A stretch of 26,169 nt of DNA from a virus. Taxonomy: Duplodnaviria; Caudoviricetes. The position numbers and the translations under genes were made by a program. Below, in pieces: positions 5,106 to 18,637 of this stretch (its first letter is position 1; each line of letters begins with the position of its first letter). The notes beneath the pieces are model-generated. The model had not been told where the DNA came from, did no database searches, and saw only the letters and a list, made by a program, of their open reading frames with translations. The stretch covers positions 1 through 26,169 of the IMG/VR virus record IMGVR_UViG_3300021982_000385; one strand, given 5' to 3'.

Positions 5106-5561
5106 TTACTTCTGCGGGGTGTTGGCGTACTTCAGAAAGAAATCATATAGCTGCTTATACCGCATTTCGAACGCCAGTAGCATGTTCTTGGCTTCGACGC
5201 TTGGGAACTGCCTATACACTCGAAGCAGTCGCTTTTCGTCTTCGCTTAAATCTCTGAATTCCGCATCGCTGTCAATGTCAGGATCTGTCGGCGGGAAGCC
5301 CGAAAACTCAGTTTCCGGAAGCTTGATGGGTACACTCTCGCCTTCGCCATAATCAAGCCATGCCGCTTGGACATTTAGCCAGTCAGCTATCTTTTGCAGT
5401 TTCTCATCGCGTGGCTTAGCCGTGCCCAGCGTATAACGACGAGCCATTTCGTATGTGACATCGCAAGCCTGGCTTAAATCCTTTACGGAACGGCGCTGTC
5501 TGCGCATTTCTTCGGTCAGCCGGTTAGCGAAATCCTGATGTTTATTCGCTTTTTCTACCAT
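5106..5561 (-). CDS. cI: CI-like repressor, DicA/RacR/Gifsy type (XRE HTH, no S24 peptidase domain)
   Basis: HTH (SVKDLSQACDVTYEMARRY...WLDYG); helical C-terminus LSEDEKRLLRVYRQFP; divergent from cro. Confidence 0.85.
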   Translation of the reverse strand: MVEKANKHQDFANRLTEEMRRQRRSVKDLSQACDVTYEMARRYTLGTAKPRDEKLQKIADWLNVQAAWLDYGEGESVPIKLPETEFSGFPPTDPDIDSDAEFRDLSEDEKRLLRVYRQFPSVEAKNMLLAFEMRYKQLYDFFLKYANTPQK

Positions 5562-5634
5562 AGGTAGAAGAGTAAGGCACGGCGCGTTCATAGTCATTTC
5601 TATTTTTCGTAGTTGTGTTTTCTACTTTATGTAG
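5555..5634. promoter_or_regulatory. OR operators (3)
   Basis: CTAC-CATAG-GTAG 5555-5567, CTAT-TTTTC-GTAG 5600-5612, CTAC-TTTAT-GTAG 5622-5634. Confidence 0.75.
5569..5597 (-). promoter_or_regulatory. pRM-like promoter (probably leaderless cI mRNA)
   Basis: ATGACT-17 nt-TACTCT, then 7 nt to the ATG; no SD. Confidence 0.5.
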
Positions 5635-10334: not shown

Positions 10335-10915
10335 GCACTGTTACCAAAGAATGGCTGCAACAAACTATCGCCGAATATGAAGCCAATCGTGATGAATTAC
10401 CATTTGGACTGGATACCAACAGTGCCATTGAACTTCAGGCGTTCAAGTTGGCGCTGGCATCGCTCGAAGCGGAGCCTGTGGCATTACGTGACGAGCGTTC
10501 AGGTAGTGGAGGTATCAGCAAGAAGCCTGGATTTAATGACCTACCGCATGGCACACCGCTATACGCCGCCCCGCAATCGACGGTATCTGTGCCTGATTTC
10601 AAGAAGCTAGCGCGTGAGCTGGTAGAAAACCTCGTTGACTGTGATGGCGCTGATGATAGCGCGGTTAAGCAGTATCTGAAATGGACGGAGAAAACCTGCC
10701 GCGACGCCATGCTTCAGGGGGCCGATCAACCACAAAACGCACCGCAAAATATTCCTGAAAAAATTCCTGCCAGGTGGCGGCAGTGGATTATCGACGTCGT
10801 TGAATATTTAGAGAATGGACTCGAAGTGGACGGAGAACTTGAGGCGCAGGGCAGTGTAGATGCTAAGCGTTTGCTGGCAGCAGCCCCTCTGCAGGAGGTA
10901 AAAACGTGTACCTGA
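10331..10915 (+). CDS. Eaa-like mosaic phage protein
   Basis: MST.TKEWLQQ.I, LALASLEAEPVA and PLYAAP motifs. Confidence 0.7.
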   Translation: MSTVTKEWLQQTIAEYEANRDELPFGLDTNSAIELQAFKLALASLEAEPVALRDERSGSGGISKKPGFNDLPHGTPLYAAPQSTVSVPDFKKLARELVENLVDCDGADDSAVKQYLKWTEKTCRDAMLQGADQPQNAPQNIPEKIPARWRQWIIDVVEYLENGLEVDGELEAQGSVDAKRLLAAAPLQEVKTCT

Positions 10916-10995
10916 TGGAGCTGTTATCAGGCGCAGTCTGGCTGGTTGTTTTAATCGTGCTGGTGGTGCTGGCTCTGAGAAGAATTGATTACTGA
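10906..10995 (+). CDS. 29-aa single-pass membrane peptide (not in the ORF track)
   Basis: AGGAGG SD plus GTG; MYLMELLSGAVWLVVLIVLVVLALRRIDY. Confidence 0.6.
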   Translation: MYLMELLSGAVWLVVLIVLVVLALRRIDY

Positions 10996-11005
10996 TTAAG
11001 CACTT

Positions 11006-11026
11006 ACCCGCTTCGGCGGGTTTTTT
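11006..11026 (+). terminator. Rho-independent terminator
   Basis: ACCCGC-TTCG-GCGGGT-TTTTT. Confidence 0.9.
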
Positions 11027-11068
11027 GTCCTACTCCAAAGCCCTTTAACATTCCGTGCTGTTAAACCG

Positions 11069-11111
11069 TTGATCAATTCCATGTGTGAGTGTACTGTATA
11101 AATATACAGTA
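11069..11111 (+). promoter_or_regulatory. SOS promoter with LexA box
   Basis: TTGATC-17 nt-TACTGT; TACTGTATAAATATACAGTA at 11092-11111 is a near-consensus SOS box over the -10. Confidence 0.9.
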
Positions 11112-11131
11112 ACATTATGGAGGCGATCACC

Positions 11132-11455
11132 ATGGGTTTTCCATCACCAGCAGCAGACTACGCAGAACAAACCCTCTCAATTACCAGCATCTGCGGTTAT
11201 GACAGCAACTGCCGCACCATCGAAACCTCTTCCGGTTACGCAATCATCAACGTTGCCAGAAAGGCGAAGATTGGCGACACGGTACTCATTTCCTTCTGTG
11301 GAAAACTGGACTTCGCCTCCGTTCAGGGGAAAGCACTCATCACGCCTGACGGAGAGGCGATTGAAGGTGATGCGCTGGATGATGCGACCGTTCATGGTGT
11401 TGTTACATACCTTCTGAACAGCGTTACCGACACAGACGACAGGCCAGTGATATAG
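11132..11455 (+). CDS. UmuD'-like (HumD-like) protein lacking the catalytic Ser/Lys
   Basis: GGAGG SD; MGFPSPAADYAEQ corresponds to the UmuD' N-terminus; GDTVLI and VHGVV strands retained; no GDSM or VK motif. Confidence 0.8.
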   Translation: MGFPSPAADYAEQTLSITSICGYDSNCRTIETSSGYAIINVARKAKIGDTVLISFCGKLDFASVQGKALITPDGEAIEGDALDDATVHGVVTYLLNSVTDTDDRPVI

Positions 11456-11500
11456 CAGAGGGTGCATGATTCCTGTGCATAAAGAGCCGATCGGTTACAC

Positions 11501-11524
11501 AGATCAATTACAGTTAATTGATCT
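11501..11524. repeat. GATC-containing inverted repeat
   Basis: AGATCAATTA-CAGT-TAATTGATCT. Confidence 0.6.
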
Positions 11525-11640
11525 ATCTAACCTATTAGACGTTCATGGCGATGGCTGCTTTAGTTACGTTCAGCGCGCAGGGAGAAAAGGGCCGACCCCC
11601 GATTAGTCGGGGATGACTGAATTGAATAGGATTTTTCGTT

Positions 11641-11808
11641 ATGAATGAGCAAGAATTAATCGCTGCCGTTCGCCCTGCTGGACGTTATGAGGTAGTGAGC
11701 CGGGAGGATGGCTCCTTTGTTGTAATCCCTGTACCTGCCGAAGCAATACTCATCACCAGGGAAGCACTCAGACAATGCCTTGAGCGCTTCCGCAACCCTG
11801 ACAACTGA
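11641..11808 (+). CDS. 55-aa hypothetical protein (not in the ORF track)
   Basis: MNEQELIAAVRPAGRYEVVSREDGSFVVIPVPAEAILITREALRQCLERFRNPDN; AGGA upstream. Confidence 0.6.
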   Translation: MNEQELIAAVRPAGRYEVVSREDGSFVVIPVPAEAILITREALRQCLERFRNPDN

Positions 11809-11870
11809 TTTATAATAATCAAGCTGGCCTGAACAACCAGCGCCTGTCGCACCATCACCGGAGAAAAGTG

Positions 11871-11951
11871 ATGGCGCAAAGAACTACCCAGAATTATTCA
11901 CACCGCCCATTCGCACGCGGTGTTTCTGCTTATGCTGGTGGTCCAGCATGA
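11871..11951 (+). CDS. 26-aa leader ORF coupled to ref
   Basis: GGAG SD; MAQRTTQNYSHRPFARGVSAYAGGPA; ATGA overlap with the next gene. Confidence 0.45.
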   Translation: MAQRTTQNYSHRPFARGVSAYAGGPA

Positions 11952-15875: not shown

Positions 15876-15888
15876 GGGGCGAATATGA
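15796..15888 (+). pseudogene. Vestigial embedded o-spanin N-terminus
   Basis: Alternate frame MYSRLLTTCLITMLIASCVTRGSAAHKGRI with LIASC lipobox; stop overlaps the HNH ATG (ATGA). Confidence 0.65.
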
Positions 15889-16505
15889 GGAAGACAATCG
15901 ACCTAACCGGTAATCATTACGGAAAGCTGACTGTGCTGTCCTACACCAACAAGGATAATTCAGGCGTTTCTATGTGGCTGTGTAGTTGTGAATGCGGAAC
16001 CGAAAAAGTTATTAGGTCAAATGCACTCCGCTCTGGCAGGACACAATCTTGCGGGTGTATGTCTGGTGCAAAACACGGGCATCGCAGACCGTCAGAAACT
16101 TCCCCCACATATATAAGCTGGCTGTCAATGCAGCGGCGTTGCAATTATCCCGGCGATGCGTATTACGGAGATTATGGTGGTCGTGGAATTTCAGTCTGCG
16201 AGCGCTGGGGTAATTTTGAATCTTTCCTGAAAGACATGGGTGAGCGTCCGGCAGGTCACACGCTTGATCGAATTGATGTAGATAAGGCGTACTCACCAGA
16301 AAATTGCCGATGGGCTATACCCAAAGACCAGGCAAGAAACCGACGAAGTAACCATATGCTCGATACACCAGCTGGTCGAATGTGCATTACCAAAGCAGCC
16401 GAAACCTATGGTGTAAAAGTAAAGACAATCGCGCACCGATTGAGCAGGGGATGGAGTGTTGAAAAGGCGCTGCTAACTCAACCATGGCAGGGCAACAATG
16501 AATAA
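15885..16505 (+). mobile_element. Free-standing HNH-type homing endonuclease gene
   Basis: DLTG..YGKLTV, WLC.CECG, SCGC, YGGRGISVCERW, TLDRID...NCRWA...Q..N. Confidence 0.85.
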
Positions 16506-16808: not shown

Positions 16809-17360
16809 TCAACAATTAATCCACCAGGTAGCATTGGGTTCAACGATGCTAGCCTCCTGAATACCTTCAATAAGGCCGAGAGTTGCAGCTCTCTCAGGAT
16901 TAAGAATGGAAGAAGTTCTGATCAGCTCACGCCAGTCAGTGAATTGTCCAGCGGAAACAGTTTCCTCGTTAAAGATAGAAATGAGGCGGTCAAGGTCGTG
17001 ATCTAAACTAGATACCCATTCGCGCATTCGTTCGTGATCGACACTTTGCATTCCGCCGAAGTTCCACTGAAAGGGATGCAACAAAAATCTTGCTCCATGA
17101 TTAGCAAAGCGCTTTATACCAGCGAGGAAAATCGCATTAGCAATTGAATCTATATTGCTAATGTTGAAGCAATAAACTGGAATTGGAAGTGTTTTGATGA
17201 AATTGTAAGCGGTAAAGCCGGATGTTACGTCGCCGCCAGAGCTCGAAATGTGTAGGTTGATTCGGGTTGCCCCTTGAGCTATTGCTGACAAAATGTTGTT
17301 TTGAAGCAAGCTTACTGTGCTTGGATTGACTGGGCATAAAAAATGAACAGTATGAATCAT
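16809..17360 (-). CDS. Stand-alone ClpP-family serine protease (moron)
   Basis: HISSSGGDV..G...YN, IDSIA (Ser), FLAG..R, FLLHP (His); opposite strand, AT-rich. Confidence 0.85.
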   Translation of the reverse strand: MIHTVHFLCPVNPSTVSLLQNNILSAIAQGATRINLHISSSGGDVTSGFTAYNFIKTLPIPVYCFNISNIDSIANAIFLAGIKRFANHGARFLLHPFQWNFGGMQSVDHERMREWVSSLDHDLDRLISIFNEETVSAGQFTDWRELIRTSSILNPERAATLGLIEGIQEASIVEPNATWWINC

Positions 17361-17706: not shown

Positions 17707-17770
17707 TTCATTAGCTGTATCTGCGTAAAAATGCTAAATTGACCCCACGAAATGTCGCTGGGGAATGGCT

Positions 17771-18637
17771 ATGAAAAGAGGTGTTGTTTTCACGGTACGC
17801 GAGCTTCTGAAAGTTAATGGTGGAAAAGGATTCACTACGGGTAGAGGTATTTCTACAGAAGAACTTAATTATTTGATGTTGTACTGGGATAAACTTGTTT
17901 CTCCAACTAATAATTTTATCCATATTAGTTTAGCAAATGAAGAGGAACTGGAAAATTGTGGAGTCCTTTACCGACCAAGGTTTACCCAACAAGGGGGTAT
18001 GGATGGTGCTAGGATGACAGAATTTCATGCTTTTACCCATGTAGAAGCTTTAAATATGATGAGAAAAAATGAGCGCGAAGTTGATTGGCGTATGCATTTT
18101 TTTAATAATGAAGTTTCAATTCATCAGGAAGCTGCACAACAAAAAGAAGTTGTGAGATTCGAGTTAGCTGAACTTTTACCAGTTCCACCAAAAGATACAC
18201 CTCTACAAGAGATACTAGAATTTAAAGAAAGGCGTAGCGACGAACTTCAAGCACTACATGGTTATCTTGATGAGCTTTATTTTGAAGTGTTAAATTCTGG
18301 CGACTTTAATTTACAAAGAGCCAAAGCTCTTTCAGGCCTGAGGGCATCTCTTGACGATCTTAATAAGTTAAACGGACAAGGTTGGAGAAGTCCGATAAAA
18401 TTTAATCTTTCTACTGCTTTTGAATTTGATTTGAATCAGATAGTGAATGGAGGTTTAAAGGCTCTTGAAGCCTTAAGTTCACAAAAGCCGCTTGAAATAA
18501 TTGGTATTGAGTCGGTTGTCAACTTGTTAGGTGGCTTTATAAAAATTAGGCCTCAACTTCAAAATGTTCTTAAAGACGGCGATCCTAAATTGGCATATCT
18601 CACTAACGCTACCAGAGAAGGCATACTTGAGAAGTAA
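17771..18637 (+). CDS. DUF6236-like protein (moron, candidate defence gene)
   Basis: AT-rich; LYWDKL and LPVP...PL.EILEFKERR.DEL motifs recalled for DUF6236. Confidence 0.6.
   Translation: MKRGVVFTVRELLKVNGGKGFTTGRGISTEELNYLMLYWDKLVSPTNNFIHISLANEEELENCGVLYRPRFTQQGGMDGARMTEFHAFTHVEALNMMRKNEREVDWRMHFFNNEVSIHQEAAQQKEVVRFELAELLPVPPKDTPLQEILEFKERRSDELQALHGYLDELYFEVLNSGDFNLQRAKALSGLRASLDDLNKLNGQGWRSPIKFNLSTAFEFDLNQIVNGGLKALEALSSQKPLEIIGIESVVNLLGGFIKIRPQLQNVLKDGDPKLAYLTNATREGILEK

Follow-up and report, generated by a model that had tools for sequence, protein, structure and literature searches.

The first gene of a LexA-boxed cassette in a lambdoid prophage encodes a 107-aa UmuD'-like protein which, judged by a start and tail in common, is a shortened sister of P1 HumD. 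The protein has no pro-peptide and no catalytic dyad, and it keeps the N-terminal arm of UmuD' while losing the groove. Our preferred reading, held at somewhat below an even chance and built on a modelled Pol V, is that it pairs with host UmuD' (or UmuD), lends its arm to UmuC and so advances Pol V activity at induction. What is new from the window, by which we mean the whole stretch of 26,169 nt that was analysed, is the Gifsy-type arrangement of the cassette, a likely antirepressor behind the 107-aa gene, and the pattern of keeping the arm and losing the groove. The UmuD-like family itself is real and conserved, and the label "UmuD-like" existed before this work: RefSeq carries it for members of PHROG 3469 in mEp390, phiES15 and vB_EhrS_59, as annotation only. 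No functional study of the shortened family was found in the literature searched, which covers few subscription papers.

The window covers the left half of a provirus of lambdoid type; the record is about 50% complete. It holds an integrase, a short CI, Cro, CII, replication genes, HNH/RusA/Q, lysis, terminase and head genes, and it lacks the tail/att end. We infer that the host is Enterobacter because the closest named homologues of the 107-aa gene come from that genus. The CI repressor (5106..5597, minus strand) has 163 aa and, by domain search, a helix-turn-helix (HTH) without an S24 domain; it is GftR-like and predicted to be non-cleavable. Two moron-like genes lie between lysis and terminase, at 16809-17360 (-) and 17765-18637 (-), and encode a stand-alone ClpP-like protease (Pfam CLP_protease) and a DUF6236 protein. 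Within the spanin region is a 206-aa ORF, at 15885-16505 (+), which we take to resemble a homing endonuclease.

The cassette begins with a predicted intrinsic terminator (11006..11027, plus strand), a terminator-like hairpin at 11006-11021 followed by TTTTTG, which would insulate the cassette from the early right operon. A near-identical hairpin precedes dinI in Gifsy-2. Next comes a predicted sigma70 promoter, TTGATC-17-TACTGT (11069..11097, plus strand), with its -35 TTGATC at 11069, a 17-nt spacer and its -10 TACTGT at 11092. A generic promoter scan of the window did not pick it up; the pattern TTGA-17-TACTGT is invariant in 11/11 aligned upstream regions, Gifsy-2 among them. The -10 is covered by a LexA box, TACTGTATAAATATACAGTA, at 11092-11111 (unstranded), which matches the consensus 20-mer at 19/20 positions. 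Its closest competitor in the window shows 8 mismatches, and the box is also the window's sole perfect CTGT-N8-ACAG. The earlier note had described just this arrangement, a terminator-insulated promoter whose -10 lies under a near-perfect LexA box, and it was found as described.

LexA control was then considered for the family, using 164 loci, namely 80 viral ones (the best of 452), 80 genomic ones (the best of 189), those of three annotated phages and that of the window, with duplicates kept in. A LexA box lies within 450 nt of the UmuD-like gene in 155/164 loci, compared with 23/2639 control windows, which makes the proposed LexA control a family trait. The box stands directly before the gene in 65 loci, precedes an intervening 80-aa gene in 84 and lies farther off in 6; 6 loci have none and 3 are cut off. 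In a screen of RNA data no run contained half of the sampled words. Of four runs examined further, one was without reads, and the other three yielded contigs of relatives spanning the whole region, which are uninformative on expression.

The ORF at 11132-11455 (plus strand) encodes 107 aa and begins MGFPSPAADYAEQ, the UmuD'-like start that had been noticed earlier. An in-frame ATG at 11117, just ahead of GGAGG, is not conserved. The protein belongs to PHROG 3469, "UmuD-like protein" (E 3e-45, 104/106 positions). It has no Pfam match, and falls far below the cut-offs of the NCBIfam HumD and UmuD models. A profile built from 76 homologues matches E. coli UmuD (97.7%, E 1.8e-12), with the alignment running from Gly25 onward. 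In this alignment an 11-residue gap in the 107-aa protein covers UmuD SGDSMIDGGIS, Ser60 included, and UmuD TVKKL pairs with DFASV, which places Lys97 opposite Ala62. The Ser-Lys dyad is absent, the Ser60 loop being deleted and Ala standing in place of Lys97, and so is a cleavable pro-peptide: Met directly precedes Gly, and M1 is invariant in 76/76 aligned homologues. The profile alignment thus upholds the claimed loss of the GDSM(Ser60) segment and of Lys97, and both the born-cleaved start and the dead active site appear to hold across the 76 homologues.

AlphaFold2 predicted the structure of the 107-aa protein with a pLDDT of 75.4 and a pTM of 0.60, the arm being low at 54-58. The top five Foldseek rows for this model were all UmuD', at E 4e-3 to 6e-3 and none at 1e-3. 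Superposition on UmuD' (1UMU) gave Z 10.1 and an rmsd of 2.8 over 87 residues, so that the suggested S24/UmuD'-like fold is supported at the level of a predicted structure.

The family is common in enterobacterial temperate phages. A homologue search returned 304 candidates, 299 of them true homologues. Matches were found in 73/50,697 phage records, in an estimated 3200 or so IMG/VR stretches, and in 12/301 sampled genomes of the order at 1e-8, where 4 match strongly and the others score like ordinary UmuD. Selection on the protein is strongly purifying (median dN/dS = 0.087 to 15 relatives, 15 pairs). The frame was also considered as a pseudogene or a chance ORF, and the dN/dS rules out both.

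Conservation falls on distinct parts of the protein. Across the 76 diverse homologues, arm residues G2-A7 and D9 are 93-97% conserved. The Lys97 position is Ala or Gly in 87% of the family, the Glu93 position is Arg, Ser or Lys, with Glu kept in 8%, and the Thr95 position is Gln, Asp or Glu. The most conserved feature outside the arm is an acidic hairpin-helix, ITxDGEAIEGDALDD (G74 100%, E78 92%, G79 95%), whose counterpart is absent from UmuD'. Pro105 is 93% conserved, and the 107-aa protein ends in the tail DDRPVI. This acidic tail resembles the last residues of UmuC and also the C-terminal tip of SSB.

The neighbours of the gene were surveyed in the same 164 loci. dinI occurs in the fetched locus in 40, mostly adjacent, and a gene for an 80-aa protein (phrog_3893) lies directly upstream in 88. 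umuC is present in 3/164 loci, as one 33-aa remnant and two full operons. Whole records of 36-67 kb were surveyed as well (50 records, after excluding 28 shorter ones and the 2 longest); umuC was found in 1/50 of these and in 0/40 near-complete ones. Within the window there are 0 matches to a Y-family polymerase or umuC. The earlier note had remarked that the gene has no umuC partner, and this stands for the window but is not special to it, as P1 HumD and four HumD relatives are likewise without an adjacent umuC. One close relative (1/50 records) carries umuDC at its tail/att end, and the part that this prophage is missing could thus hold umuDC too. All 5 host genomes tested have umuC.

Further genes were seen in related cassettes. 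The 80-aa gene, as at L002:3762-4001, is fused to the family gene in one case (P0160) and is absent from the window. In locus L023 a full-length prophage recA (10497-11636, a 379-aa frame with Pfam RecA) stands directly behind the family gene, seemingly with its own LexA box. A protein consisting of the LexA DNA-binding domain only is encoded in the SOS cassette at L027:7943-8440 and also in L023, L030-L032 and L035, where its gene sits after dinI and an antirepressor candidate.

The HumD proteins compared were P1 HumD, N15 gp26, phiKO2 gp23, HK140 gp28 and HK639 gp28 (NF051876, PHROG 811). None of the five has an adjacent umuC. They keep Glu93 (5/5) and Lys97 (4/5); Thr95 is Arg in 5/5, and Ser60 is Thr in 4/5, being kept only in P1 HumD. 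An unrooted tree of 39 rows places each of three groups on one side of a branch: the short family (100/100), HumD (100/99) and UmuD (86/90). HK140 holds dinI, the 80-aa gene and a full HumD where mEp390 and Flotzy hold dinI, a LexA box and the short form; the same 80-aa family (phrog_3893) is annotated in the Flotzy slot. P1 HumD is reported to promote mutagenesis, according to a title cited in PMC11541004 and a RefSeq note.

The protein could be a plain substitute for HumD, a homodimer that has no need of host UmuD' to activate host UmuC. It agrees with HumD in slot, partner gene, start and tail, and the gene is orphaned from umuC as HumD is, with no umuC in the near-complete records. However, the protein scores 30.8 bits against the HumD model NF051876, where the cut-off is 120, its clade is separate, and Glu93, Lys97 and the Ser60 loop, which HumD largely keeps, are gone. 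That HumD itself varies at Ser60 and Thr95 speaks somewhat for a plain substitute, which we nevertheless consider improbable. If the protein merely copied HumD, it would be an unremarkable example of a type known since 1999.

The structure of Pol V is unsolved, and no UmuC chain is present among the best 60 of 69 PDB matches. Passages of PMC11791011 describe an AlphaFold model in which the UmuC C-terminus docks in the catalytic groove of one UmuD' and the arm of the second UmuD' reaches in near the UmuC active site; they also describe an armless UmuD' which dimerises and is non-mutagenic. By our own reading, S36, T71, K73 and E69 in that paper are the UmuD' numbering of Ser60, Thr95, Lys97 and Glu93. 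The Ser60 loop, Lys97, Glu93 and Thr95 are the groove positions lost across the 76 homologues. With the arm kept and the groove lost, the 107-aa protein would work only as the arm donor in a mixed dimer.

Of the roles suggested in the earlier note, pairing with UmuD/UmuD' is still the most favoured, and the proposed mechanism runs as follows. SOS would cleave LexA and the cassette would be transcribed, as the observed box suggests. Once Met is removed, the N-terminus would be G-F-P-S-P-A, as it is in UmuD' after RecA* cleavage. The protein, predicted to fold like UmuD', would dimerise via its kept helix and C-terminal strand, and would form only the arm-donating half of the mixed dimer, with host UmuD' holding the UmuC C-terminus. 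Pol V activity would be brought forward at the time when the phage must replicate damaged DNA. The transcript likely extends into the 55-aa ORF downstream, whose product is a likely antirepressor that would inactivate the non-cleavable CI.

Several observations argue for an arm donor. The arm is conserved though no cleavage needs it, and the family is under strong purifying selection with its groove lost throughout, while HumD largely keeps Glu93 and Lys97. The Met-Gly start and the D-D-x-P-V-I/M tail are common with HumD, the same slot and 80-aa partner go with either HumD (HK140) or the short form (mEp390/Flotzy), and umuC is present in the hosts. The slot at the tail-att end interchangeably holds umuDC, umuC alone, HumD or a UmuD-like gene, the first two as LexA cassettes. 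The link of the family to Pol V is supported by this context, and also by the armless members beside umuDC and the remnant overlapping a umuC start that are described next.

Other arrangements were seen at prophage ends. Armless family members stand beside umuDC, directly after umuC or before umuD, at L160:1077-1364, L163:3669-3956 and L177:3368-3682 (-) (L177/L212). At L174:1192-1501 a LexA box is followed by a family remnant that overlaps the start of umuC. At L182:1465-2766 a LexA box stands directly before umuC, with no umuD. Both are orphan umuC cassettes.

Other points weigh against an arm donor. The architecture assumed for Pol V comes from a model, and the monomer model of the 107-aa protein has low confidence in the arm. 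The hairpin-helix ITxDGEAIEGDALDD is unaccounted for. The armless members beside intact umuDC show that a core lacking the arm can be maintained, and HumD's own changes at Thr95 and Ser60 indicate that the contact in the groove can withstand substitution. Heterodimers of UmuD with UmuD' are described as inactive and subject to degradation; if the protein paired with uncleaved UmuD, it could therefore damp Pol V instead.

The protein may then be a damper of Pol V, a dead partner that traps host UmuD in a form uncleavable in trans, or one whose arm plugs UmuC, so that phage DNA is spared mutagenesis. UmuD cleavage is intermolecular, the arm of one subunit entering its partner's active site, according to passages of PMC9926225, and the non-mutagenic armless UmuD' dimer of PMC11791011 and the armless members adjoining complete umuDC fit such a role. 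But a poison needs no arm, and the arm is 93-97% conserved; the sister HumD, moreover, is reported to promote mutagenesis. We regard damping as quite unlikely.

The earlier note had also proposed a decoy for RecA*. Passages of PMC9926225 report a cryo-EM structure of RecA with UmuD, in which the core touches RecA through Tyr52, Phe94, Asp91 and Glu93 and the arm through residues that include Phe26 and Pro29. In the 76 homologues only the arm contacts are present: Tyr52 is Arg, Phe94 is variable, Asp91 is Cys, and Glu93 is Arg, Ser or Lys. The decoy is weakened because these four core residues are not kept; its arm contacts stand. A comparison of the RecA patch found the UmuD contact residues lost and a different acidic patch conserved.

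In a related explanation, the protein would be an analogue of DinI which binds the RecA filament groove through its kept arm and new acidic hairpin, stabilises or shields RecA*, and tunes SOS or repressor cleavage. The gene holds the dinI position of the Gifsy cassette, and the alternation of UmuD'-like gene and dinI in Gifsy-type phages (L273, Gifsy-2) points to RecA. The acidic residues of DinI, LexA and UmuD engage the same basic patch of RecA, and UmuD Phe26 and Pro29 touch RecA (PMC9926225); the family has a conserved acidic patch. Against this, neither the UmuD F203 pocket (Tyr52, Phe94) nor the acid pair (Asp91, Glu93) is present, and dinI, co-present in 40/164 loci, is not a simple substitute for the family gene. 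Neither domain nor phage family profile searches matched the 107-aa protein to the DinI family. This explanation seems unlikely.

The acidic hairpin and acidic C-terminal tail may instead serve another partner, either the 80-aa phrog_3893 protein or a basic host protein. The 80-aa gene directly upstream in 88/164 loci and the one fusion are in favour, and the acidic motif and tail are otherwise unexplained. Yet in 65/164 loci, the window included, the LexA box is directly before the gene and there is no such partner, and we think a different partner very unlikely.

The 107-aa protein had been proposed as the antirepressor of the non-cleavable CI, being first behind the sole strong LexA box in a prophage whose CI has no S24 domain. 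This claim did not survive. Among the 50 records carrying the family, 27 encode a frame of 211-286 aa with an S24 domain, including two confirmed HTH+S24 repressors, and its occurrence in such phages led us to reject an antirepressor identity for the protein. Its alleles do not track repressor type: near-identical copies co-occur with different repressors, UmuD-like alleles only 45-50% identical accompany the same 55-aa ORF, and seven loci have related CIs and a diverged 55-aa ORF without a UmuD'-like gene. We give the idea hardly any credence.

The second gene of the cassette is the better candidate. The 55-aa ORF (11641..11808, plus strand) occupies the position of gftA in the Gifsy cassette, and is likely the antirepressor of this prophage's CI. 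In the first loci examined, the 55-aa allele accompanied the window's CI type in 5 and a related C-terminal domain in 1 more, with 1 locus too short, and a 72-aa allele accompanied a 139-aa CI in 6/10 loci, with no CI found in the other 4. The tree of the UmuD'-like gene intermixes loci of the two alleles. Of 30 loci fetched by the 55-aa ORF, all have a LexA box 531-562 nt upstream and the family gene upstream (45-99% identity), and 26 have the CI C-terminal domain, which in 5 of these is joined to a different HTH. Conversely, a 55-aa homologue is present in 31 of the 36 loci retrieved with the CI, and none of the 36 has another allele; the remaining 5 are short or cut at the flank. Seven of the CI-fetched loci hold the 55-aa ORF without a UmuD'-like gene, and 1 has dinI there. 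The 55-aa allele tracks the CI C-terminal domain even where the HTH differs, with all these co-occurrence counts inflated by shared ancestry.

For the ORF, dN is below dS in the 5 measurable of 6 pairs. Its likeness to GftA/GfoA is weak: a gapless 43-residue match at E 0.073, not significant by hhalign, and 6.2 bits against the GftA type, a score equalled by 2/1000 shuffles. Profile comparisons with GftA-type alleles were not significant, no match was found in the phage collection or the atlas, and the low-confidence model (pTM 0.36) had no viral fold match at E 0.001. We call the antirepressor role likely and no more because shared ancestry inflates the counts and the GftA homology is weak. 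With other CI types the same position holds alleles of 72 aa and about 90 aa, which match phrog_340 weakly, as does GftA.

Two further elements flank the 55-aa ORF. Between the two genes lies a conserved imperfect hairpin or palindrome (11493..11532, plus strand) with GATC sites, common to both antirepressor alleles, which may tune expression of the second gene. Covariation is weak, with two-sided change in 5/30 predicted pairs over the whole spacer. Downstream, at 11824..11951 (plus strand), is the motif of the Gifsy gftA-irsA spacer and then a 26-codon ORF (11871-11951, plus strand), which starts MAQ where Gifsy irsA (DUF1367) begins and overlaps the start of the next gene. It is a probable irsA remnant.

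Taken broadly, thousands of enterobacterial prophages may carry a half-mimic of UmuD', one with the arm only, which switches on Pol V via a mixed dimer before RecA*-dependent cleavage, and whose armless siblings by umuDC act as a brake. We offer this as a doubtful but possible generalisation; if true, nature would offer a test of the asymmetric Pol V model, and phages would encode a dial for mutagenesis in the host. If the protein is an arm donor, one small gene is enough for common prophages of Enterobacter, Klebsiella and E. coli to adjust SOS mutagenesis in their hosts, and the protein could serve directly as a probe of how two UmuD' subunits split the work in Pol V. The 55-aa ORF and the CI C-terminal domain are likely a new antirepressor-repressor pair in a group of Enterobacter prophages.

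Three known systems bear comparison. In Gifsy-2, passages of PMC3121763 describe a terminator and a LexA promoter that drive dinI, gftA and irsA, and a GftA that inactivates a short non-cleavable repressor. The window's cassette is alike in its terminator, its LexA-covered promoter, its place downstream of the replication genes, its downstream motif, its short non-cleavable repressor and its small second ORF. It differs in that dinI is first in Gifsy and the UmuD'-like gene is first here, the second gene is a 55-aa ORF with weak GftA likeness, and irsA is cut to a probable remnant. The earlier placement of the 107-aa gene in the Gifsy slot therefore stands for the terminator, promoter and downstream motif; the gene itself holds the dinI position only, and the gftA position belongs to the 55-aa ORF. 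Compared with E. coli UmuD', the 107-aa protein is alike in predicted fold, N-terminal arm, dimer helix and C-terminal strand, and differs in having no pro-peptide, no Ser-Lys dyad, no umuC operon and no core RecA-contact residues. With HumD it has in common a Met-Gly-Phe-Pro-Ser-Pro start, a LexA box, carriage by phages without an adjacent umuC, and an acidic D-D-x-P-V-x tail (D-D-x-P-V-I/M) that is absent from UmuD; its sisterhood with HumD is drawn from that start and tail. It differs from HumD in being about 20 aa shorter, in having lost the Ser60 loop, Lys97 and Glu93, and in its new acidic ITxDGEAIEG motif.
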